A DNA stretch of 58,645 nucleotides, the filler included, from Perkinsus olseni (lineage: Eukaryota): the NCBI GenBank assembly GCA_013115125.1. It is 6 parts of 6 records of this genome, joined end to end, with 100 filler letters (N's around TTAATTAATTAA, not from the genome) between each part and the next. Parts side by side here need not be neighbours in the genome. Positions count along the whole stretch, not along the records: positions 1 to 9,772 come from JABANN010000906.1; 5 more parts are not named here. One strand, given 5' to 3'. Made by a program: the position numbers and the translations under genes. The notes below the pieces were generated by a model. The model saw only the letters and a list, made by a program, of their open reading frames with translations. It searched no databases and was not told where the DNA came from. Below, piece after piece: positions 616-17,137 of the stretch (its first letter is position 1; each line of letters begins with the position of its first letter).

Positions 616-2442
616 TCAGGCAGCAGTGACATCATCATCCACGCTGTGACCACCCATGCGAGCCATCTCGTTCCTCAGCTTCTCAGTCTCCGCCAGACTA
701 GGCTCTTCGCACGTTGCTCGGGCCCTAGCGGCGAAGTCCATGTACCACGTCGTGATAGCCAACCGGTGAAGGTCTCCGGTGACTGGAAGTACCTGATCGA
801 CCCACGGTGGAATTTCGTGGCGCGCGGTCAGAAAAGCCTACCTCATGCGGCACCCGATCGCTGAGAAAAACTAGCAGGCGGCCACCACTGGGACAGATGC
901 CCGTCGCGACCTCCGAACCATCCTCCATTGCATGGAACACGCGAAGCGTCTGAGGCCAGAGGATGCGTGATTTACGAAAGGAGTGGTACGAGGTACACCC
1001 CTCCGTGACTGTCCAGTGACCATCCCTCCGGGTTGAGGTAGACCATGACCGTCAAAATCCTCCCATCACCAATCGGATTGTCGATGTGTCGGATATACCG
1101 TGACCCGACACCGTTGCCTCCACGTGCGGCTAACAGAGAATTTCGTGGCGCGCGGTCACCGTCACGGTATGGGAGGACTCACCTGGGTAAATAGCGACCA
1201 TCGAGCTCTGGGCCACCACCGTGTCGACTCCCTCCAGAGCAGCGCATCGACAGTTTCGAGCCAAGCCTTGGACGAGGAGGTCCATACCTGAGGAGCCGGA
1301 AGAAACAGCAGCCCCAGAGAAGCCGTCGTGACCTGCTCTCAGCCACTTGTAGCCGACGGGACAGTCGTCGTCCTGTGGGGACAGCCAACGCACAAAGTCC
1401 CCTCGAGAGCCTTCCTCAATGTACCTAGCATATACCGTCCAGAGGAGGGCTAGAAGCAGGGCCTTCGCTGTGACTTGATGTTCTGGCCTGATCGCCCACC
1501 CCCCATACGACCCCTCCCGAAATCGCCCGTCCCTGAGAGCTCCATCTGAGTTTATCCTCTTCGAACCAGGCTCACCATTGGAGTATCGGTCGAGCCAGCA
1601 GGTCCGCATTTTCTCAACAGCCGTCATGTCGATGTAGCCATCAATGAACGCCCACCCCCGACCGGCCAAGCCTTCCGCTAGAGACGCTGCCTGGCCGGCA
1701 GTCAACGTAGGTGGCTCGCCCCATTCCGAGCTCGCCTCGTATCCTGCCAGAGGAAACTCTCAGAGACCACCACCAGCAGCAGCGACATCACCTGAGTCGT
1801 AGTGTCCACCCATCATAGAAAAGCACATCTCGATCTCACGGGACTTGGCCTTCAACTCACTCTGAGCCGCCGCCACCTAACGGCCAGGGCGGCAGTCTAC
1901 GTCGAGCAGCCGGTCAACACCTCCCGCTCAGCATTCCGCTTTTGTTCGGCGACCTTTTCGACAGCCTCGCTTGCTGTGGAGACATCTTGTAGGATCCTGG
2001 GGGCCGATTCGTCAGTTCCACGGGTCGACGTAGGATACCATGCAGCGGGACCCACCGATTGCGCTCAGCCCCAGCCTCGGCGATTTCCTCACTGATACTC
2101 CGAGTCTTCTCGGCATGAGCCTGAGCCACCAAAGACTCTGCATCGCTCCGCTGCACATCGAAACTCTTTTGGCATTTTTGTACTAGCATGGCCAGGCGAA
2201 GGTTGGCAACCTGTTCGGCCAACGTAGGCTTCTTTCCACCAGCGCCTCGACACTCCACACGATGAGCCTGCAGAGGGTCCTTCGACTCCGTGACGCCTCG
2301 TCGATCTGACCTCCCTCCAATGGCGCAGCTGATGGTCCTTAGAGCAGTACTTAACATCCAAGCATCGGCTGCAAGTGAAGGGATGCGGCCGTTGTTGACT
2401 AGTCGCACCACAGTAGGCACAGGAAAGATAGACAGCGGCCAT
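616..2442 (-). CDS. MYND zinc finger + 2OG-Fe(II) prolyl 4-hydroxylase (EGLN/PHD2-like architecture), multi-exon
   Basis: N-terminal CAYC...CSRC...YCSKDHQLRHW (MYND). Spliced C-terminus RYIRHIDNPIGDGRILTVMVYLNPEGW..GG|TLRVF...RLLVFLSDRVPHE|VLPVTGDLHRLAITTWYMD matches the PHD catalytic motifs (HxD...H triad, 2OG-binding Arg). Stop at 616-618. Confidence 0.85.
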
Positions 2443-2873
2443 TTTTGCCGCGGCTACCATCAGCTCGACAGCTTGTGCGTTAAGTCTACCTAGCCCGTAC
2501 GAGAACCCGTCGATGACTGACCAATTATAGAAAGCGAACAATGAGTTCTCAGGCACTTACTCCTCCTCGGTCGAAGACTAAGCGGTTAAAAATCATCGGG
2601 CGGTGGCAACATGCACACGGGAACCCTCGCACTACCCGCCTCATCGTAAACCCTCGAGGAAAAGGAAAAAAGTTTCAACCGGCAAGAAAATAACAGACGA
2701 GCAGGAGTAACAGAAATTCGTTCGATGGCTGACTCCACGACGGAGACATGCAGGAGCAGCTCGACTAAAGTATACAACGGAAGTTTCATGAGAGGTCGCC
2801 GCAAGGACAATATTCCCCCTCACCACTACTGACGCAACCGGGGCAGCAAGGCATCGTCGAAACAGTACAAGTT

Positions 2874-5369
2874 CTATGTACACTCGTCCAGGAACTTGGC
2901 CAGTTCATCATGGCCGCCCTTCCGGGCAAGGATCGCGGGGGTCTGGCCTCTGACGTCCGCCGTGGCCCGGAGGCGCTTGAAGACATCGAAGGTGAGTAGC
3001 CACTCACAAATATCCTTGTGTCCGCCGTAGGCTGCCTTGTGGAAGGCGGTGTGGCCCTGGTCATTCCCCCTAGCCAGCTCTTCGGGCTCCAGCACCGTCG
3101 AGCACCACTTGACCGTCTCCAGCTGACCCGACAGCGCCGCGAAATGGGTGACTATGCAACCCCACTTGTTGACGTGATGGACATCAGCCCGTCGGGCCAC
3201 CAGGACGTCGCACATGGCCGGGAAGCCGCCCCAACACGCCAGCTGCAACGGAGTGGTACCGTCCTTGGTCTCGCTGTCAACAGGCAAACCGCAGTCGACG
3301 AGTAGCCAATCAATCATACCAACTCGGCCGTTGCGAGCTGCCCAATGGAGAGCATTGCGACCACTCTTGTTGTCACAGTAGAATGGATCTCCACCGACCG
3401 CGAGGAGAGTCCTGCACACTTCCAACTGCCCAGCCCCAGCAGCGTAGTGGAAGGGTGAGGAGCCGAAACGGTCAGTGAGGGAGACGCCCTTCTCTCGGAT
3501 CTCCTCGGGAGTGTACAGGTGGAGCACCGAGCCGTCCTGGCATGCGGACATGAACGGGTCTAGTTTCTTCGATTTCTTCTTGACCCTGTTTTTGACGGCC
3601 ATCGCCGCCGTCGCTGTCTTGGTGGCTGCGAGTTCCTCCACGTAGTCGAAGAACGAGGCGGCACACGCGTGGGCGAAGACATGCTCGACATCAACGACCA
3701 CCCCCAAGGCTTCCGACAGGGTCTCCACCAGGATGACGGCCAGAAGGGAGGTCACGCCCTGACTCGCTAGAGACGCGTCATCGACAACATCGAAGCCCAG
3801 CACCAGATTCACGCATGCTCGTATCCGCTCCCGTGCGCCGCCGTTCGACGCCTTAGACTTTCGAGCCTCGGTGACGGGGTAAGCCGCCAAGGCCTTTCGA
3901 TCCAGCTTGCCGTTGGACGTGACCGGCAGCGCTTGGAGGGCAGTAAACCATGTTGGGACCATGTAGGGCGGCAGAACTTTCCCCAGCTCCTGTCGGAGTC
4001 TAGGGACATCAAGGCAAGACGAGTCACCAGTGATGAAGGCGGCCAGATGACTCTTATGGGGCACCACCGCGCATTGGCATTGGTCATCAAGATGCTGGCT
4101 GAGGGCCTTCTCAACTTCACCGAGTTCAATGCGATACCCTCGAAGCTTCACTTGGGAGTCGTTCAACCTGCCCAGATAAATGTAGTTACCATCGTCGTCA
4201 ACTCGCACTCTGTCACCAGTCGCATACCAACCGTCTCCGGAAAAGCCGTCGAGGGGTCGCGATGGCGCTGCAGTCCTCTGGAAGTAGCCAAGCGCCACGC
4301 CAGCGCCACCGATGAGGAGTTCGCCCGAGTCGCTGATCTCGAATCTCGTCTTCCGAATGGGCCGCCCTATAGGAACAGGGCCATCACCGTCTGGCAATAC
4401 TCGGTGAGTACTCGACCATATTGTGGTTTCAGTGGGGCCGTAGCAGTTCAGGACCATCGGACTGATCTCACAGAGGCTCCTGAGGGTGGCAGGGAAGGGC
4501 TCGCCACCGCAGAGGATCTTCAGGCGAGGGCTGAGCTCCTCGGCCCTCTTCAAGAGACCAGCAGCTATCAGCAACTGCCACATTGTGGGAGTTGCCTGCA
4601 TAACGTCAACTGACTCCTCGATGAGCATTGAGAGTATCTTAGGTCCATTCCGGCAAGTCTTGCTGTCGGCAATGATGCACTCCCTGCCAGTCGAGAGAGG
4701 CAGCATGTACTCCAACACCGAGATGTCGAACTGGAAGGTCGTGACGGCCAGCAGGCGGCCCCAATCAGAACCGAGCTCCTCGGAGAAGTGCTCGAGGACA
4801 TTAATCACATTAGCATGAGACACCACCACCCCCTTGGGCCGACCAGAAGAACCGCTAGTAAACATAATATACGCCGGAGCTGGCAGGCCGTCGCGCTGCA
4901 GAGTCAACTCATCCTCTATGGGCTTCTGGAGGTTCTCCAGCCCAGGAAGATCTTCGACTCCGATGACTCTGCGGGCGGTCGACTTCAGCTCAGCAGCTGC
5001 CTCAGCGGTGGTGACGATGAGGAGGTCGCAGTGGGCCTCGTCAGCCACCTGCCGCGTTCGACCAATCGGTGTGAGCCCAGCGTCCAGCGGGATCATAGTG
5101 CAGCCGAGCTTCCACAGCGCCAAGGCAGTGACTATGAAGGCCGTCCCTCGTTCTAACAGAAGAAGCACTCGCGAGCCTGGCCGCAGACCGCTCTCCCGGG
5201 ATAATGCTGAGGCGCGGGCGTCCACGAGAATCCGAAGTTGATGGTAGGTAAGGACGGTGGAGTTGCATCGCAATGCGATATTTTCAGGATATTTGACCGC
5301 TGTCGCCGCGAAATTCAGCCACAGGTTGTCATAAGGCAAATGAATCATGCATGAAGCTCTGACTGTCAT
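2874..5369 (-). CDS. Intronless NRPS-like protein: adenylation domain - carrier (PCP/ACP) domain - about 6 ankyrin repeats
   Basis: A-domain core motifs FTSGSSGRPKG, FDISV, NCYGPTE, GELLIGGAGVALGY, YATGD, QVKLRGYRIELGEVE, LPPYMVP, NGKLDR. Carrier motif QGVTSLL (Ser codon 3747-3749). Ankyrin repeats such as GRNALHWAARNG, GTTPLQLACWGG, GHTAFHKAAYGG. Start is ATG 5369 or 5348. Confidence 0.9.
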   Translation of the reverse strand: MTVRASCMIHLPYDNLWLNFAATAVKYPENIALRCNSTVLTYHQLRILVDARASALSRESGLRPGSRVLLLLERGTAFIVTALALWKLGCTMIPLDAGLTPIGRTRQVADEAHCDLLIVTTAEAAAELKSTARRVIGVEDLPGLENLQKPIEDELTLQRDGLPAPAYIMFTSGSSGRPKGVVVSHANVINVLEHFSEELGSDWGRLLAVTTFQFDISVLEYMLPLSTGRECIIADSKTCRNGPKILSMLIEESVDVMQATPTMWQLLIAAGLLKRAEELSPRLKILCGGEPFPATLRSLCEISPMVLNCYGPTETTIWSSTHRVLPDGDGPVPIGRPIRKTRFEISDSGELLIGGAGVALGYFQRTAAPSRPLDGFSGDGWYATGDRVRVDDDGNYIYLGRLNDSQVKLRGYRIELGEVEKALSQHLDDQCQCAVVPHKSHLAAFITGDSSCLDVPRLRQELGKVLPPYMVPTWFTALQALPVTSNGKLDRKALAAYPVTEARKSKASNGGARERIRACVNLVLGFDVVDDASLASQGVTSLLAVILVETLSEALGVVVDVEHVFAHACAASFFDYVEELAATKTATAAMAVKNRVKKKSKKLDPFMSACQDGSVLHLYTPEEIREKGVSLTDRFGSSPFHYAAGAGQLEVCRTLLAVGGDPFYCDNKSGRNALHWAARNGRVGMIDWLLVDCGLPVDSETKDGTTPLQLACWGGFPAMCDVLVARRADVHHVNKWGCIVTHFAALSGQLETVKWCSTVLEPEELARGNDQGHTAFHKAAYGGHKDICEWLLTFDVFKRLRATADVRGQTPAILARKGGHDELAKFLDECT

Positions 5370-6622
5370 TTGGTTCGTAGCTCCCCTTGCCAAACTGCCC
5401 CAACGCAACCCTCCCCTGATGGTCGTATCTTAGGTTGAATCGATACGTAGGACTACGCTCAAGGTGGCAGCACTTAGCCGCCACCGTAGACCACCGAACG
5501 AGACAGGAGCAATATCGATACCATGCAAGTACTCCGTCCGACGTCCGGCCACGTCGCAGGTCGACTTAGACGCCTGACAAGCGCTGCATGTACGAGTTAA
5601 TCGCTGATAAACGGCACTCCATGAACGAAGACGCTATTGCTAGTTAGGGAAAGCGAGAGAGACAACACTGCAGTTGTGGGAGCTCGGACGCATTCCGTAA
5701 CAACCGAGACCGATCAGCTTTTTCCTAAAACTGAAATGCTCATTTGCTAGCCTACAAAACTTTTCCCGAAGTGAAACTCAATGGCTCCGACAGATATATT
5801 TTGCGTTAAATCGACCGATGGAGTATTGCGATTTAACCAGCATGAGCGAACTTCCTTCGAGCAGCAGAAACCAATTCGATCGAATTGAACCAGACACCCG
5901 AAGTGGACTTCTTACCTTCATGCTCCTCAATTACACATACCTGACAGCAGTCGAGCAAACACTCCATAACAGAAATTAAGGAAATGCAAGTCCAGACAAG
6001 ATAACAAGCAGCGCGCTAACACTATTGATAAATTGCGCTCAGCAGCCAAGCGGCAACTAAGGTTCGCATCATTTTCGGCTCAGTCATCCAGTCAAAGATG
6101 CATACAACAGTCAAGCAGCGATAGTGGATAAAAGAGGGGTCAACAAAAGAGCATCGAGGCAGAAGGGCAACAGTAAGGATGAATACTATATGACCTCTAC
6201 GGACAATTAGTAGAATCTTGCAATCTTGCGAAAACCTAACGTCATTGGCAACTACAAGCGCAAGCTTTCTTCAGAGCACACCGGCTGTGAGGGTAGTAGC
6301 AGTTGAAATAACAAAATTCTACAGCCACACATGCCAGCTACAGCTGCTTTACTTCAAAGATCGTTTTGTATGAACGTGTCCTAGGTCTGCGAGACGAGAG
6401 CTTTCCGTACACTGGGAGAGCAATCATGCAACAGAAATGTAAGTTCAAGATAATAACAGAATTCGCAGAGAGTCTCCTGTTGAGATGCCGCGTTGTACCT
6501 GGACGGTGAATGAGACGCTCCAATACTTATATTCTAAGCGGAACGAAGTGGAGTCAAGCTAATGGTGAGAAATGAAGCGATAACTACGAAAATCGATAAA
6601 CAATTCAGAGCTTGGATCACAA

Positions 6623-6694
6623 GGGTGTGTAGCTCAGTGGTAGAGCGGCTGACTGCAGATCAGCAGGTCCTCGGTTCAAATCCGGGCGCGCCCT
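6623..6694 (+). tRNA. trnC-GCA: tRNA-Cys (GCA)
   Basis: Acceptor stem GGGTGTG/CGCGCCC, D arm AGCTCAGTGGTAGAGC, anticodon arm GCTGA-CTGCAGA-TCAGC, T arm GGTTCAAATCC; 72 nt. Confidence 0.95.
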
Positions 6695-7068
6695 ATTATT
6701 CGCCAACTATTTCTTGGCGTGACTCGCCGGACGCGGCATACGAACGTCATGAATATTATGACCAAATTTCGAAACAAACTACCTTCTCCAAGTTCGACAA
6801 TTCTACGAAAGCAACCGCCTCCACGGCATCCCAAACGCATCCAATATTGCCCCTCACACATCGCTAACTTGACGATAACAGACTCCTATCCTCCCTGGGC
6901 GGGAGCAGCACAGATAAAGATACATCATTCCAAATATTATTCCTGAAGTTCATGCAAGTGTACCTGAATAACGTTGCGGCGATACCTCACTCACATCGCT
7001 ATCGCGTGTCAATTGAAACGCGCAGTCCTATTCCAGTCTTCCCACTCACACCGTGCCTCCCTCCACGG

Positions 7069-9772: not shown

Positions 9773-9872
9773 NNNNNNNNNNNNNNNNNNNNNNNNNNNN
9801 NNNNNNNNNNNNNNNNTTAATTAATTAANNNNNNNNNNNNNNNNNNNNNNNNNNNNNNNNNNNNNNNNNNNN
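9773..9872. other. Artificial scaffold linker (N44-TTAATTAATTAA-N44)
   Basis: Six-frame stop spacer flanked by Ns; the same structure occurs five times in the window. Confidence 0.97.
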
Positions 9873-11673
9873 CCGCCTTGTAGACCTCCTCGGCGGTGTC
9901 GACAAGCTTGCATCCCTCAACGGCGTAGTAGCGATCGGGGAATGAAGCCTTATCACCGCAGCCACGCTCCATGACGAAGGCGAAGCCCATGTCGCGGAAC
10001 TTGGACACAACATTAGGAGCGATGGCGACACGAGTCTCATCGCTGTTCTTAGTCTCATCAAGAACACCGATGGTCTTGAGAGCAGGAGGGTACTCCTTAA
10101 CCTTCTCGGGCTCAGGCTTCTTCTCCTCAGCAAGAAGAGGAGTAGAAGCGTCGTTCTTGGTGGTGACCTTCTTCTCCTTAGCAAGGCCTTGGAGAGCAGC
10201 GAGCAGCTCCTGAGTCTTCTCGTGAGCGTTACCGAAGAGCATACGAGTGTTGTCCTTGTAGAACAAGGGGTTCTCGATACCAGAGTAGCCAGTGGCCATG
10301 GAACGCTTCATCACGACGCACATCTTAGCCTTCCACACTTCGAGGACGGGCATGCCTCCGATGGGAGAGGAAAGATCCTCGACGGCCATGGGGTTGACGA
10401 TATCATTAGCGCCGATGACAAGAGAGACATCAGTCTCTGGGAACTCAGGGTTGATCTCGTCCATTTCCTTAACAATATCATAAGGGACATTAGCCTCAGC
10501 CAGCAAGACATTCATGTGACCAGGCAAACGACCGGCGACGGGGTGAATGGCGAACTGAACCTTGACACCGTGGGTGCGAAGGCAATCAGCGATACCAGCG
10601 ACAGTCTGCTGGCAACGAGCAACGGCCATACCGTAACCGGGGACGATGATGACGGACTGGCCGTTGATCATCTTATCAGCAACCTCGTCGATGTTGGTCT
10701 CAGTGATAGTACCAGTGACCTCGACGGTGTGACCTTCCTCGACACCGAAGCCACCAAGGATGACGGAGGTGAAGGAACGGTTCATACCCTTGCACATGAT
10801 GTAGGAAAGGATAGCACCGGAAGAACCGATGAGAGAACCAGCAATGATGAGGATGGTGTTGGAGAGCATGAAACCACAGGCAACGGTAGTCCAACCGGAG
10901 TAGGAGTTCAACATGGAAACAACAACGGGCATATCAGCGCCACCAATGGACATAACAAGAGCCCAACCAAGGTAGAGGCAGATGATGGTGGTAACGATGA
11001 TGATCCACATACCGGTAGTAGAGCCCTTACCGACAAAGCACAACCAAACGGTGAGCAAGATGGAAGCAACGCAAATGCCTGCGTTGATCCAATGGCGGAA
11101 GGGAAGAAGGAGAGCCTTAGAGCGGATGACACCCTGAAGCTTGCCACAAGCAACGATGGAACCAGTGAGAGTCATGGCACCGAAGAAGATACCAATCATA
11201 GTCTCTACCAAGTGGCCAGCGTTCATCACCTCTTCAGCATCGAAGTAACGAGCATAGGCGACCATGACGGCAGCAAAACCAACACTAGCGTGGAAGCCAG
11301 CGACCATCTGGGGCATCATGATCATAGTAGCCTTGGACGAGATGAAAAGACCGCAGACAGCAGCGATAACGAAGCAGATGATAGCAAGAACACCAGAGTA
11401 GTGAGTGAAGCGGGGGTCGAGGCAAGCGAAGATAATGGCAACCAACATACCAATGACACCGGCCATGTTACCCTTAGTGGCGGTCTCAGGAGAACCGAGA
11501 CCCCTCAAGGCATACATGAAGCACATGCCGACGAAAACGACGGCGGCTTCGTTCATAGAGATGTGGGCGACACTCTCCTCCGGGATAGCGGGGAGCTCAC
11601 CAGCGGCAACACTTCCCCTCAACTCGGTAGCAGCGGCCACGGCACACGATGCAGCGGCGATGAAGAATCGCAT
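9873..11673 (-). CDS. NNT: NAD(P) transhydrogenase, fused beta-alpha order, copy 1; truncated by scaffold end; signal-peptide-like N-terminus
   Basis: Domain II SIGGADMPVVVSMLNSYSGW, domain III VPGYGMAVA, HPVAGRLPGHMNVLLAEA, GANDIVNP, then the start of domain I (ETRVAIAP). ATG 11673 MRFFIAAASCAVAAA. Confidence 0.93.
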
Positions 11674-12504
11674 TTTTGACCAACAATACGACACTGACGC
11701 GAGTAGGACTGCAAACCCCACACATACTACTACGACTATCTAATGGGTTGTGTCGAACTACGTGAAGCCTCAGGATTGCCCTTCTCCACAGGACCTGCGA
11801 GAAACTCCCCGCACTAAATGCCGGACTCCCATGCCGAGGAAGATTGCCCATCATCCGAAAATTCTCAAATCCACTCCCCAAACTCACTAGGCAGCGATAA
11901 AAGCTATAATTTGATCGATGGGCCAAGCAACCGCAAAATCACCAACAGAACGCATTCCAGCACGCCCCGTCTCTCGAGGGCACTCTCACTGAACGACCCG
12001 ATCCAACAGAGGCCATAGAGAGTCCACTGAATGAAATCAGACCGAGAAATTGGCGCCCTAGAGCCGCCCTACGGCAGACGCTCCCTCGAACCTAGCCGGC
12101 CAAAGCTTGCCGCTTTGTGTTGTCTACCACCAGGGCGAGCGAGATTCACCTCGCCGACCTTCAGATTTTTCGACTTGCCAAGGCTTCGCCATATGGGGAT
12201 CCTTACTAATCTAACGCAACTCTGAAGAATAACTAAATTGAAACAGTTCGTTGCCAGCAATCTGTTCGGCAATGGACTTGATCCATGTAAGCTAACGTTT
12301 AGACCGATACCTACCGTGCAAGTCTTAAGATAAACTCTTCTTCCACTACAATGAATAATCATCGCCTTCTACGAATAAGAACAAGGCGTCAGCTTTGATG
12401 AAATAGTCCATTGCTGCTTTACGCAACAGTACACCGCGAGAGACTCTAGTCAAGCGGAACTATCGCTACTGCTCGAAAAACACCATCATCACGTCTGCAT
12501 CATT

Positions 12505-15500
12505 TCACCTTCGGAACATACCCAACATGCGTTTAGTAATCCAGAACCCACCAAAAATGTTGAACGAAGCACAGAAGGTACCGACAATAGCACAGACCGA
12601 AGCCATATGCCCTTGTGCCGAGAGCTGGGTCATCGCTCCGACAACGATAATCCCGGAAATAGCATTGGTAACAGACATTAAAGGAGTGTGCAACGCTGGA
12701 TCCACGCTCCAGACCAGGAAGTAACCGATGATCACCGCCATCACGAAGGCCATAAGCTGGTTCACGAGTTGCATGTCGTTGCTGAAGCCAGCACAGATGC
12801 AGATGACCCCGAGAACAAGCAGGCCAATGAAGAAGTTGAGCCACTTGGAAAAATTCGTTTGTTCCTTCTTCTCTGGCTTCTCTACAGGGGCAGCTGGTGT
12901 GTTGGCTGGCTTGGCCTTCGGCGGCGGAGGAGCGGCTGGAGGGGCCGCCGGCTTCCAAGTCACCTCACCGTTGTATGTGCAACGGATCGGACCGATGACC
13001 TCATCGGGATTGGTTATAGCGTTGTCCAGATTGCCAGCATCCCCCATGTGCTTGAACAAGTGACCCATGTTGGCTGCAAAGAGCTCAGAAGCCTGGGCAG
13101 GCATGAAGCGAGCCAAGTTAGATTCACCAACAATGGTTACGCCACTCTCGGGATCAACGATGGTCTTATCCTTCTGAGTGAGCTCGCAGTTACCACCCTG
13201 CTGAGCAGCAAGATCCACGATAACAGAGCCAGGCCTCATAGAACGGACCATCTCCTTGGTGATAAGGAGGGGAGCGGGCTTGCCAGGGATCTGGGCGGTG
13301 GTAACAACAACATCAGAATCGGCACTCAACCTGGCATAGAGCTGCATCTGGGCTTGACGGAACTCGTCAGACATAACCTTGGCGTAGCCACCAGCCCCAG
13401 CACCCTCTTCCTTGATCGGCACCTCAGCGAATTCAGCACCCATAGACTCGACCTGCTCCTTCACAACCGAACGAGTATCATTGGCAACAACGAGGGCGCC
13501 AAGAGAGCGAGCGGTACCAACGGCCGAAAGACCAGCGACACCGGCACCGATGATGAAAACCCTTGCTGCTGGAACTGCACCAGCGGCGGTGGTCAGGGGC
13601 TTGGAAAAACGAGGCAAGAGATGGAAGGCTTCGATTATGGCCTTGTAGCCAGCCATGTTGGCCATTGAGGAGAGAGTATCCAACTTCTGGGCACGGGTAA
13701 TACGAGGAACAGCATCAACAGACATAGCAGTCACACCCTTGGCGGCGAGAGTCTTAAGCAACTCGGGGTTAAAGGCAGGCCACAAGTAAGTGACGACGAT
13801 GTGGCCCTTTCTAAGTGACTTGATGTCTTCTTCCGTCAGGGTGTTGATCTTGCAGATGATATCCGCAGCCTTAAAGACTTCCGCAGAGGTCTGCACCAGC
13901 TTGCAGCCTTCAGTGGCGTAGTAGCGGTCAGGGAAGGAGGCCTTGTCACCACACCCACTCTCCATTATGAAGCCATAGCCCATCTCACGGAACTTGGACA
14001 CCACATTAGGGGCAATGGCAACACGAGTTTCCTCAGAGTTACTGGCCTCGTTCAAGACGCCTATGATCTTCTTGGCCGGCGGGTACTCCTTCACCTTCTG
14101 TGGCTCTGGCTTCTTCTCGGCAGCTAAGAGAGGGGTGGTGGCGTTAACGCCGGGGCCGGCAGCGGGCTGCAGATCCTTAGTGAGGTTTTGCAGCTCGGCA
14201 AGGATCTCTTGGGTTCGAGTCTTAGCGTTACCGAATAGCATACGGGTGTTGTCCTTGTAGAACAAGGGGTTCTCGATACCAGAGTAGCCAGTGGCCATGG
14301 AACGCTTCATCACGACGCACCGAGTAGCCTTCCACACCTCGAGAACGGGCATGCCTCCGATGGGAGACGAGAGATCTTCAACGGCTAAGGGGTTGACAAT
14401 ATCGTTAGCGCCGCAAACGATCGATACATCGGTGGTTGGGAACTCAGGGTTGATCTCGTCCATTTCCTTAACAATATCATAAGGGACATTAGCCTCAGCC
14501 AACAAGACATTCATGTGACCAGGCAAACGACCGGCGACGGGGTGAATGGCGAACTCAACTTTAACGCCCTGCGACCTCAAGAGCTCGGCAATACCGGCTA
14601 CGGATTGCTGACAGCGGGCGACGGCCATACCGTAACCGGGGACGACGATAACAGATTTGGCGTTCAGCAAATCGTGGGATACCTCATCGACGTTGGTCTC
14701 AGTGACGGTACCAGTGACCTCAACGGTATGACCCTCCTCGACACCGAAGCCACCAAGGATGACGGAGGTGAAGGAACGGTTCATACCCTTGCACATGATG
14801 TAAGAAAGGATAGCACCGGAAGAACCGATAAGAGAACCAGCAATGATGAGGATGGTGTTGGAGAGCATGAAACCACAGGCAACGGTAGTCCAACCGGAGT
14901 AGGAGTTCAACATGGAAACAACAACGGGCATATCAGCGCCACCAATGGACATAACAAGAGCCCAACCGAGGTAGAGGCAGATGACGGTCTCAATGCCAAT
15001 GCAGATCGTACCGCCCTTGGTCCCCTTACCAACGATACAGAGGTAGACCGTTAGAGCAACCGAGGCAACGCAAATGCCAGCGTTGATCCAATGACGGAAT
15101 GGGAGTAGCAGAGCCTTCGAGCGAATGATCCCATGAAGCTTGCCGCAGGCCACAATGGAGCCCGTAAGGGTCATGGCACCGAAGAAGATACCGATCATGG
15201 TCTCGACCAAGTGGCCAGCGTTCATCTCTTCCTTGGGATCGAAGTAACGAGCGAAGGCTACCATAACAGCGGCCAGGCCAACCATGGCGTGGAAGCCGGC
15301 AACCATCTGCGGCATCATGATCATCTTCGCTTTATTGGCGATCATGATACCAGCAACAGCGGCCACAGCGAAGCAAATGAGCGCTATCTCCAATGATTTA
15401 GGAGTGAAGTGTGGATCGTAGAAAGCGAAGACAACCGCCACGAGCATTCCGATAGAACCAGCAGCGTTGCCTCTGGTAGCGGTAACAGGCGATCCAAGAC

Positions 15501-15651
15501 CCTTGAGGGCGTACATAAAGCTCAAAGCAACAAACACCACGGAAGCTTCAGTCATAGTGGCGAAGGCTGTCCCACTGACCAAAGATGCCGGGTCTTCCTC
15601 GGGAAGGTAGGGATGGCTGCCGCCTCTCAGATGTGGATCGACAGAGGCCAT
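12505..15651 (-). CDS. NNT: NAD(P) transhydrogenase, fused beta-alpha order, copy 2, complete and intronless (1048 aa)
   Basis: Beta-subunit domains II and III, then alpha domain I (GAGVAGL, EGAGAGGYAK, DLAAQQGGNCE) and alpha TM part (LHTPLMSVTNAISG). Confidence 0.96.
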   Translation of the reverse strand: MASVDPHLRGGSHPYLPEEDPASLVSGTAFATMTEASVVFVALSFMYALKGLGSPVTATRGNAAGSIGMLVAVVFAFYDPHFTPKSLEIALICFAVAAVAGIMIANKAKMIMMPQMVAGFHAMVGLAAVMVAFARYFDPKEEMNAGHLVETMIGIFFGAMTLTGSIVACGKLHGIIRSKALLLPFRHWINAGICVASVALTVYLCIVGKGTKGGTICIGIETVICLYLGWALVMSIGGADMPVVVSMLNSYSGWTTVACGFMLSNTILIIAGSLIGSSGAILSYIMCKGMNRSFTSVILGGFGVEEGHTVEVTGTVTETNVDEVSHDLLNAKSVIVVPGYGMAVARCQQSVAGIAELLRSQGVKVEFAIHPVAGRLPGHMNVLLAEANVPYDIVKEMDEINPEFPTTDVSIVCGANDIVNPLAVEDLSSPIGGMPVLEVWKATRCVVMKRSMATGYSGIENPLFYKDNTRMLFGNAKTRTQEILAELQNLTKDLQPAAGPGVNATTPLLAAEKKPEPQKVKEYPPAKKIIGVLNEASNSEETRVAIAPNVVSKFREMGYGFIMESGCGDKASFPDRYYATEGCKLVQTSAEVFKAADIICKINTLTEEDIKSLRKGHIVVTYLWPAFNPELLKTLAAKGVTAMSVDAVPRITRAQKLDTLSSMANMAGYKAIIEAFHLLPRFSKPLTTAAGAVPAARVFIIGAGVAGLSAVGTARSLGALVVANDTRSVVKEQVESMGAEFAEVPIKEEGAGAGGYAKVMSDEFRQAQMQLYARLSADSDVVVTTAQIPGKPAPLLITKEMVRSMRPGSVIVDLAAQQGGNCELTQKDKTIVDPESGVTIVGESNLARFMPAQASELFAANMGHLFKHMGDAGNLDNAITNPDEVIGPIRCTYNGEVTWKPAAPPAAPPPPKAKPANTPAAPVEKPEKKEQTNFSKWLNFFIGLLVLGVICICAGFSNDMQLVNQLMAFVMAVIIGYFLVWSVDPALHTPLMSVTNAISGIIVVGAMTQLSAQGHMASVCAIVGTFCASFNIFGGFWITKRMLGMFRR

Positions 15652-17137
15652 TGTGGGTGGAAAAAATCAGCGGATCTTGCGCTCTACTGAGAACATCAAC
15701 CCCGATCGTGGCAAGCCAGCATTCGAGGCTTCTATCAACCACTCAGATAACGACGGTCGCAACAATAATGGCAACCTGGATTAGTCGATAAAGGCTGTTC
15801 ACAAGGAGCACACGAGAACACACGGCATCTCGAAACGCGAGCCAGTCCATCCGTGTGTAATTCGTGATACATAGACAACAACAGTGGACTGGCCTAATGA
15901 ATGCCATACCTCGGACCCATACAAAGCAGGGTAGAGTATAATCTAAGGTAAGGGTAGAGAGGCTCAGGAGCAGTACGCCTCCCGTAGTGATCACCGACCA
16001 AAATCAGCACGCGCGCGCTTGCCGGAGCGAAGCGTCGCAGCATTTGACAATTTGTTGACTTATTTGCGAGGTCGTATTTGACTTCGGTCACCCCGTTCAG
16101 TGAAGTAATTCTGACACTCAAAATATATCACGGAATTGATCCTTAGACTTAAAATGCGTTTCCAGGATCGATTCCGAATTCCGGAATTACTTTACTAAGC
16201 GACCCAAGTGGCGCTGCCGAACTAAGCTTCGACGTGACGATCGCTGACGGACTGTATGAAACACTGTGTTTCAACGTGTTTCATATGGCGTGTTTATAGG
16301 TCGATTGCACGTTTACAACGTGTTTCACGTCATGTGTTTCAAACACAACAGGCAAGAGCCGGTGATGTAGTGACAGGTCATGTGAATGAACAGGGGAAAT
16401 TTGATCGTTGATCAAATATGACGAAGTGACTCGAGGACGCCAATGGCTCAAGCCAAGCATACCTGAAAGCCGTAAAGAGAACAGCCGTGACGGCAAGGCG
16501 AATGGGTTCTACTCACCGCTGTGCAATTAAAGAAAGATGTGACACCATCGCTCCGCCTACTATCCAATATGAGGACGACGAGAATGTACCTGGCCGTACA
16601 AGAGCTCAGCTGACCAGGCTACACTCAGCCTACCCGAGTCCCAGAGCATGCAGGATCTGCTGCTGCATATGACTGGTATCTTCAGGCGAATGGTGATAAT
16701 GGCACGCTGTCACGAGGCTTCTGATGCAGACCTAAGGAAGAAGTCCAACCCCTGCCTCAGAGGCTGTGCTCTTACCTTGGCCATGAACACTATTGCCAGG
16801 GGTTTCAGGACCACATTGTGAAGCGTATCAATGACGTCCATCGAAAGACACCTCGAAGCTGGCACACAGCCCTCAGACCAGGATGGCAAACACATCTCCC
16901 CTTGGCTTCCCACGAACTCAATACGGTCGAACAAAGAGTTGAGGAGAAAGACAGTTGAATGGAGCCATGGGCGGCCGGTGCTTTCGATAAGGAGGCAGAA
17001 GCTTATGCTGAACCGCTTGGCGTGGTGATTATCACAACGCCACGACGATTAAGCGTGATACCGGCCGCCACGATGGCGTTATAAAAACGACGAAGTCCAT
17101 GACAATAGACTGATCCATTCCGACCGTGTAGGTCATC

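Follow-up and report, generated by a model that had tools for sequence, protein, structure and literature searches.

The A-T-Ank gene and its transcription

The DNA analysed here, referred to as the window, is a stretch of 58,645 nucleotides from the assembly GCA_013115125.1 of Perkinsus olseni. The gene in question codes for an adenylation (A) domain and a thiolation (T) or carrier domain of the kind found in non-ribosomal peptide synthetases (NRPSs), followed by a C-terminal module of ankyrin repeats (Ank), and it is called A-T-Ank in what follows. Long open reading frames (ORFs) are sparse across the window, which fits eukaryotic DNA, and the one that holds this gene is open over 2874..5408 (-) with no internal stop and no intron. 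From the ATG at 5369 it has 831 codons plus a stop codon at 2874-2876, and the residue numbers used here count from that ATG (Table 1). There is a second in-frame ATG at 5348-5346, which is Met8, and a start there gives 824 amino acids. The contigs of both RNA-labelled runs described below end at 5350, which is 2 nucleotides upstream of this second ATG, and Met8 is the first residue both in a P. olseni record (P0002) and in an ESM Atlas record. Because the RNA contigs end where they do and these two records begin at Met8, the true product is probably the 824-amino-acid protein that starts at 5348. Since this shorter protein begins directly with the A domain, it would have no targeting peptide and the enzyme would be cytosolic.

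The evidence for transcription comes from two RNA-labelled runs, X5 and X12, that are kept as Logan contigs. In X5 the gene is covered by four overlapping contigs (2854-3844, 3816-4605, 4584-4971 and 4953-5350) with zero joints, indels or differing letters, and in X12 the same span, 2854-5350, is covered piecewise. A single 991-nucleotide contig holds the codon of the carrier Ser, the linker and the entire ankyrin module, and the next contig crosses the A-T junction, while the depth of the RNA-labelled contigs is zero over the downstream flank (1800-2765). That the contig material is RNA and not DNA follows from an adjacent transcript, described below, because it shows a spliced intron. The A-T-Ank gene is expressed as one unspliced stretch, with the limit that contigs cannot prove a single molecule. 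Of two further RNA runs kept as raw reads, X23 and X24, 4-5% of each was sampled and not a single read could be placed, which bears neither way. Complete-ORF transcripts of the same architecture are present in other protists.

Table 1. Features of the A-T-Ank gene in the window
Feature	Coordinates	Strand	Evidence and remarks
Whole coding sequence including stop	2874..5369	-	831 amino acids from ATG 5369; RNA-labelled contigs tile 2854-5350, no joint
Adenylation domain, large N-terminal part (residues 20-400)	4170..5312	-	PF00501, E 4e-61; TIGR01733; predicted local distance difference test (pLDDT) mostly 80-96
Stretch with nine of the ten specificity-code residues (D215 to W318)	4416..4727	-	Alignments to 5u89 and 4zxh
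Adenylation domain, small C-terminal part (residues 401-497)	3879..4169	-	GRLNDSQVKLRGYRIELGEVE and catalytic Lys488; PF13193 below cut-off
Carrier (thiolation) domain (residues 512-588)	3606..3836	-	PF00550; four-helix bundle in model
Flexible lysine-rich linker between carrier and ankyrin, KNRVKKKSKKLDP region	3564..3605	-	Low pLDDT
Ankyrin module (residues 603-831), capping region and six repeats	2877..3563	-	Ank families; pLDDT about 89-97

Domain organization of the protein

When the protein was scanned with Pfam, AMP-binding was found at residues 20-363 (E 4e-61; 207 bits against a cut-off of 29.9), PP-binding (PF00550) at residues 514-577 (E 2.9e-8; 34.3 bits against 20.8) and Ank families over about 600-827 (Ank_2, E 2.2e-37; Ank, E 7.6e-26). 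Residues 603-831 are wholly occupied by ankyrin repeats and only Ank families match there, and no condensation (C), thioesterase (TE) or reductase (R) family was found in the Pfam scan at E <= 0.01. As none of these three is present in the scan, the protein falls outside the complete NRPS modules and the releasing NRPS-like enzymes (C-A-T, A-T-TE and A-T-R).

All the core motifs of NRPS adenylation are present and most of them are invariant in 22 sequences. The large part of the A domain carries FTSGSSGRPKG, FDISVLE, NCYGPTETT and YATGD, with invariant motif residues, and the small part carries GRLNDSQVKLRGYRIELGEVE and NGK488, in which the codon of the catalytic Lys488 is at 3906-3908; R401, K408, G411, R413 and K488 are all invariant in the family alignment. 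These correspond to the motifs known as A3 (TSGSTGxPKG), A4 (FDxS), A5 (NxYGPTE), A7 (YxTGD), A8 (GRxDxQVKxRGxRIELGEIE) and A10 (Lys). An AlphaFold2 model made from a 13-sequence family alignment (mean pLDDT 83.4; predicted template modelling score 0.61) has a well-formed A domain, followed by a carrier with helices at 512-524, 541-555, 561-566 and 570-588. The attachment residue, Ser541 (codon 3747-3749), lies in GVTSL (538-542) at the start of helix 2. The two linkers that flank the carrier, 501-510 and 584-601, have pLDDT below 50, which, as expected, fits a carrier that would swing. In the ankyrin module a capping helix region (605-630) precedes six helix pairs (639-657, 673-692, 707-725, 740-759, 775-791 and 811-829). 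As a separate observation, all members of the family have a short and disordered carrier-ankyrin linker with many Lys, Arg and Gln residues (KKKSKK in Perkinsus), which might act as a nuclear localisation signal or make contact with an acidic partner.

The original prediction for this locus, which was made from the sequence alone, had described a single uninterrupted ORF over 2874..5369 with a complete adenylation domain, a carrier keeping its phosphopantetheine Ser in GVTSL and about six ankyrin repeats, and had taken it to be a stand-alone A-T protein without condensation, thioesterase or reductase domains. The frame, the stop end and this domain content are borne out by the scans, the motifs and the model; the start is the one part that probably needs correction, 5348 being likelier than 5369. 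A splitting of the A-T and ankyrin parts into separate transcripts, which it had also raised, is not seen in the RNA-labelled contigs, which tile both junctions without a joint.

The specificity code of the adenylation domain

To read the specificity code, the family alignment was used together with HMMER alignments to A domains of solved structure, in the GrsA numbering of its ten positions. The residues are D215, I216, L219, Q258, L286, G288, C309, I317, W318 and K488, that is DILQLGCIWK, which is letter for letter the code proposed originally. When the pocket stretch alone (166 residues) was compared to solved sequences, 12 matches were obtained at E <= 1e-10, of which the best was 5u89 (89.8 bits; aligned DILQLGLIW), the second 8www (83.7 bits) and the third 4zxh (75.8 bits; aligned DILQLGVVW). 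The structure 5U89 is the A domain and peptidyl carrier protein (PCP) of the glycine module of DhbF, solved with glycyl vinylsulfonamide, and 4ZXI is AB3403 with AMP and glycine (PMC10510592). The code is identical to that of DhbF module 1 (5u89) at 9 of the 10 positions and to that of AB3403 (4zxh) at 7 of the 9 readable positions. Module 2 of LgrA was also considered as the best relative in the PDB, but its top rank over the whole protein came from two summed A domains; over the pocket the LgrA Gly module scored only 40.9 bits with a different code, and it was dropped as support for glycine.

The code was also surveyed in the nearest A domains outside the family, which are the 110 non-A-T-Ank proteins in a best-120 list, mostly bacterial or metagenomic C-A-T modules. 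The pattern DILQxGx[IV]WK is found in 90 of these 110 listed relatives, and exact DILQLG[LM]IWK in 61 of them; DLPQVGMVWK is present in 13 and other codes in 7. Within the A-T-Ank family itself D-I-[LV]-Q-[LI]-G-x-[IV]-W-K and the carrier Ser are kept in all 22 aligned members, and two of these (P0016 and P0372) have exactly the code of DhbF module 1. Thus glycine, the substrate named in the original prediction, is supported as far as sequence can show, and it is at this level that the earlier claim holds.

Distribution of the family

The closest match of the window protein is a P. olseni record with 93% identity over 824 amino acids, and the next, with 66% identity, is an equally long protein from P. 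chesapeaki. Beyond Perkinsus, a search with a profile of the ankyrin module, in which 120 proteins were listed, gave 20 that join this module with AMP-binding and/or PP-binding, 3 of the 20 being fragments. The A-T-Ank architecture is not unique to Perkinsus: the protein clusters that have it number at least 20 and come from four lineages of protists. With lineages assigned by source names, the members are the perkinsids Perkinsus olseni and P. chesapeaki, the dinoflagellates Effrenium, Cladocopium, Durusdinium, Prorocentrum, Biecheleria, Polykrikos, Gymnodinium smaydae and Abedinium, the diplonemids Artemidia motanka and Flectonema neradi, and the stramenopile Pedinella sp. The ESM Atlas has two AMP-binding plus Ank clusters, with 66 and 60 members, one of which carries the automatic name 'Ligase/ankyrin repeat fused protein'; in each cluster only 2 members have a phylum given, both times Chlorophyta. 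A quick maximum-likelihood tree of 21 family and 15 bacterial A domains places all the bacteria on one side of a branch with a Shimodaira-Hasegawa-like approximate likelihood ratio (SH-aLRT) of 99, and this agrees with a eukaryotic family of single origin, in a tree for which the careful search was unfinished and which has several long branches and an arbitrary root.

The novelty that the original prediction gave to an A-T protein ending in ankyrin repeats was overstated, considering these clusters and also that fusions of this general kind have been noted before. In Symbiodiniaceae, monofunctional domains of polyketide synthases (PKSs) and NRPSs occur in fusions with repeats of the HEAT, ankyrin and PPR types, and free-standing A domains are predicted to use Gly, Trp or Phe (Beedessee et al. 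2019, PMC6361889). In our literature search no paper was found that defines the A-T-Ank family, its wider spread, its ankyrin conservation or its function, with the reservation that supplementary tables may list members, and a search for the code string found no paper. One member (P0009) has, after the ankyrin module, an extra C-terminal GGACT/AIG2-like gamma-glutamyl cyclotransferase domain at residues 943-1077 (E 3.7e-17), a possible hint at amide chemistry on amines.

Conservation and relatives of the ankyrin module

When the window protein was compared to the 19 non-Perkinsus members, the identity was 0.45 in the ankyrin module, 0.39 in the A sub-domain, 0.33 in the A core and 0.22 in the carrier. 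The ankyrin module is the best-conserved part of the protein. It has 39 invariant positions in motifs such as DRFG, D.KSGR..HW..R, KD.T...Q...WGG, N.W.C...HF, N.Q.H...HK..YGGH and D.RGQ, and, by the geometry of designed ankyrin repeat proteins (DARPins), many of them are at the groove-facing variable positions of the repeats. Eight A-T-Ank members match this signature at 38-39 of the 39 positions, twelve ankyrin proteins without an A domain match it at 21-25, and three generic ankyrin proteins at 11-15.

Among the twelve intermediates are three proteins with a DnaJ domain (P0342, P0140 and P0141), of which P0140 also has OST-HTH, so that the nearest non-A relatives of the module include J-domain proteins. 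Over 81-97% of its length, their ankyrin module is identical at 37-40% of the positions; however, DnaJ with or without OST-HTH/LOTUS replaces the A-T part and about a third of the signature is absent. The extra domains of J-domain proteins usually bind protein clients. The invariant signature points to one conserved ligand of the ankyrin groove, and, given this use of the extra domains in J-domain proteins, the ligand would most simply be a protein.

A related six-repeat module with the signatures GRHWR, DT..W, N.C..W and N.HHK was seen in a wider set of protists, including some diatoms and a choanoflagellate, where it is joined to DnaJ and sometimes to OST-HTH/LOTUS domains. This wider set appears to be an undescribed family of conserved ankyrin modules. 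Two Symbiodiniaceae proteins that combine Aspzincin_M35 with ankyrin (P0382 and P0391) share 35 of the 35 aligned signature positions; they were considered as evidence for a protein target and kept as a lead only, since the Aspzincin_M35 match covers about 30 profile positions and is below the cut-off in P0382. A whole-library search with the ankyrin module alone was uninformative on architectures, its best 150 matches being giant multi-ankyrin proteins that score by summed repeats, with one A-T-Ank member (P0003) among them, and the same search in the ESM Atlas returned generic ankyrin clusters only. When a complex of the ankyrin module (603-831) with the carrier (508-590) was predicted, the score was 0.00 in two runs, that is 'no answer', which bears neither way.

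A proposed mode of action and its alternatives

In the explanation that we favour, as somewhat better than an even chance, the protein belongs to a conserved protist family of A-T enzymes that stand alone and load glycine, and its ankyrin groove would dock it onto a partner protein that is itself conserved. The A domain would bind glycine and ATP and form glycyl-AMP, and the glycyl group would then pass to the phosphopantetheine thiol on Ser541 of its own carrier, once this had been primed. The loaded carrier, swinging on its two flexible linkers, would be presented to the partner, and the ankyrin module on its flexible basic linker would dock it onto that one conserved protein, which would be either the acceptor of the glycyl group or an enzyme that transfers it. 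With no C, TE or R domain the protein cannot condense or release alone. The groove residues are invariant across very distant protists, and the evidence leans slightly to a protein as the partner of the ankyrin module. The family, which is conserved and expressed, has members in a parasite of oysters, in symbionts of corals, in dinoflagellates that form blooms and in diplonemids that are abundant in the ocean. If the glycine substrate and the ankyrin partner were found, they would explain how glycine enters the hybrid polyketides of dinoflagellates, and they would uncover a new glycyl transfer in protists that lack such pathways; the constraint on the groove offers a direct experimental handle on the partner.

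Several observations weigh against this explanation. AMP-binding_C (PF13193) at 418-488 reaches 22.1 bits and is under its cut-off of 24.5, and the NCBIfam model of amino-acid adenylation (TIGR01733), strong at 283.1 bits, is under its cut-off of 317.4. Position 322 of the code is C, A, V or L in the family, and in the bacterial relatives it is mostly M or L. For the A domains of dinoflagellates, substrate predictions can go wrong when the predictor was trained on bacteria, and BurA, which was predicted to use Phe, was found by isotope labelling in the bacterium to use a modified methionine (Williams et al. 2021, PMC8283056). The carrier is the least conserved region, and its motif, GxDS in most members, reads GVTS in Perkinsus. 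PP-binding at E <= 0.001 was missed by all 7 non-Perkinsus A-T-Ank members that were rescanned at first (P0006, P0007, P0008, P0014, P0016, P0123 and P0124) and likewise by P0372 and P0380 in a further rescan, which makes 9 of 15 rescanned members. Finally, the majority of the conserved ankyrin residues are at canonical repeat positions, and the conservation of the module is therefore partly structural.

It is possible, though rather unlikely, that the protein is instead a trans-acting glycine loading module for a PKS or PKS/NRPS line, in which the ankyrins would scaffold it onto single-domain ketosynthase (KS), C or carrier proteins; modular-synthase scaffolding of this kind has been proposed in general for dinoflagellates. 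Dinoflagellates supply many of the family members, glycine is the amino acid reported from their polyketide hybrids (PMC7557087), and the repeat-fused monofunctional PKS/NRPS domains and Gly-predicted free-standing A domains of PMC6361889 would fit such a line, as would FabD-like acyltransferases with ankyrin repeats and carrier-TPR fusions (Williams 2021, PMC8283056). The family is, however, just as well represented in Perkinsus, in Pedinella and in two diplonemids with a heterotrophic life, the relatives found for the ankyrin module are J-domain proteins and not PKS parts, and no FabD-Ank protein is among the 120 listed ankyrin-profile matches. A published count for the transcriptome of P. 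marinus gives 16 adenylation domains and 0 for each of the ketosynthase, condensation, thiolation, acyltransferase and thioesterase domains (PMC8283056, Table 2). These counts are weak, as that transcriptome has a BUSCO of 30%, the hidden Markov models (HMMs) were built from Amphidinium, and the same HMMs missed the carrier of this protein. Feeding of a PKS/NRPS line is thus possible in dinoflagellates and less likely in Perkinsus and diplonemids, and for Perkinsus the evidence leans slightly away from it.

Another question is whether the A domain activates some other small acid, such as alanine, beta-alanine, sarcosine, glycolate or similar, its Gly-like code being a sign of bacterial ancestry. 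This is unlikely in our view. The variable position 322 that is unlike the bacterial M or L, the published caution on predictors in dinoflagellates (PMC8283056), and the 13 of 110 listed near relatives with the different code DLPQVGMVWK would all agree with it. Against this, the code is fixed at nine of its ten positions across the perkinsids, the dinoflagellates, the diplonemids and the stramenopile, including the bulky Trp318 and Asp215, the latter of which pairs with an alpha-amino group, and the exact code of DhbF module 1 is present in two members.

A further explanation, and one that we advance as doubtful, is that the family carries out non-ribosomal glycylation of a protein, in which the invariant groove, akin to the one in J-domain co-chaperones, would hold a conserved client and an amine of that client would attack the glycyl thioester on the swinging carrier. 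If true, this would be a way of aminoacylating proteins after translation that needs neither tRNA nor TTLL-type ligases and that perkinsids, dinoflagellates, diplonemids and some stramenopiles have in common. Glycyl transfer to proteins and the loading of a PKS/NRPS line in trans were the two functions that the original prediction had offered as possibilities.

It is quite improbable that the carrier is vestigial and that the protein is a plain glycine-AMP ligase or amide synthetase, or a non-catalytic glycine/ATP sensor on an ankyrin scaffold. The low conservation of the T domain (0.22 identity), the 9 of 15 rescanned members that fail the Pfam model and the GVTS of Perkinsus in place of the usual GxDS are what one would see in a decaying carrier, but all 22 aligned members keep the Ser, Ser541 opens helix 2 of a predicted four-helix bundle, and both Lys488 and the A8 hinge motif, which are needed for the thioester-forming state, are invariant. 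That the A-T and ankyrin parts are two genes misread as one, or that the ORF is a chance or contaminant feature, is already refuted as far as contigs allow by the one open frame without a stop, by the RNA-labelled contigs that bridge both junctions, by the recurrence of the fusion in the protein clusters and complete-ORF transcripts of other protists, and by the close matches in P. olseni and P. chesapeaki.

Surroundings of the gene

Just downstream of A-T-Ank there is an ORF with a MYND-type zinc finger (PF01753, E 8.5e-9) at 2089-2556 (-), over which the RNA-contig depth is zero. Upstream, a transcript at 5421-6498 (-) has one intron, its joint 5572->5915 skipping 342 bases with CT..AC, which is GT..AG on the minus strand. 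The depth of this transcript is about 3 times that of the A-T-Ank gene, it has no ORF of 100 amino acids or more, and its contigs continue past 6498 into unlike sequence. The sole tRNA in the window, found with ARAGORN, is a tRNA-Cys (GCA) at 6622-6695 (+). Further along are two tandem, closely similar NAD(P) transhydrogenase genes at 9817-11739 (-) and 12505-15666 (-), the second with a 1053-amino-acid ORF carrying PNTB, AlaDh_PNT_N/C and PNTB_4TM and the first running into a stretch of N. These neighbours (the MYND-finger ORF, an AAA-like ORF, the two transhydrogenase genes and the tRNA-Cys) were considered as a clue to function, and no link to A-T-Ank was found.

Comparison with known systems

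The A and carrier folds and the core motifs of the window protein are like those of DhbF module 1 (5U89) and AB3403 (4ZXH/4ZXI), which ranked best and third, respectively, among the solved matches of the pocket stretch. Bacterial Gly units sit in C-A-T(-C/TE) modules and pass glycine to a condensation domain of the same line, whereas the window protein is without C or TE and has an ankyrin module after its carrier. It may work in the way of that half of a glycine NRPS module which does the loading. The dinoflagellate members are probably among the repeat-fused or Gly-predicted A domains of Beedessee 2019 (PMC6361889). The parts of that paper and of Williams 2021 considered here give no definition of the family, no ankyrin conservation and no function for it, and they do not cover the members from Perkinsus, the diplonemids and Pedinella. 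Another stand-alone design based on A-T is the fungal A-PCP-R-R glycine betaine reductase (PMC10510592).

For the possible working of the protein the closest analogy is Ebony, the insect beta-alanyl-amine synthase, as its accepted description has it, in which A-T is followed by a domain that is not of the NRPS type. The C-terminal, amine-selecting domain of Ebony is catalytic and has an acetyltransferase-like fold, whereas the C-terminus of the window protein is all ankyrin, and repeats of this type are not known to catalyse a transfer. In AASDH (ACSF4-U26) of animals A-T is followed by a PQQ-type beta-propeller, and this enzyme activates beta-alanine. Thus, as generally described, AASDH is like the window protein in having a repeat-built protein-interaction domain after A-T and in activating a small amino acid; it differs in that its repeats form a beta-propeller and its lineage is animal, and the Pfam scan of the window protein found no PQQ repeat family. 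Ebony, AASDH and the fungal betaine reductase each revealed a chemistry outside classical peptide assembly, and it is beside these three that the A-T-Ank protein, with its glycine-type pocket and its conserved ankyrin groove, would stand.

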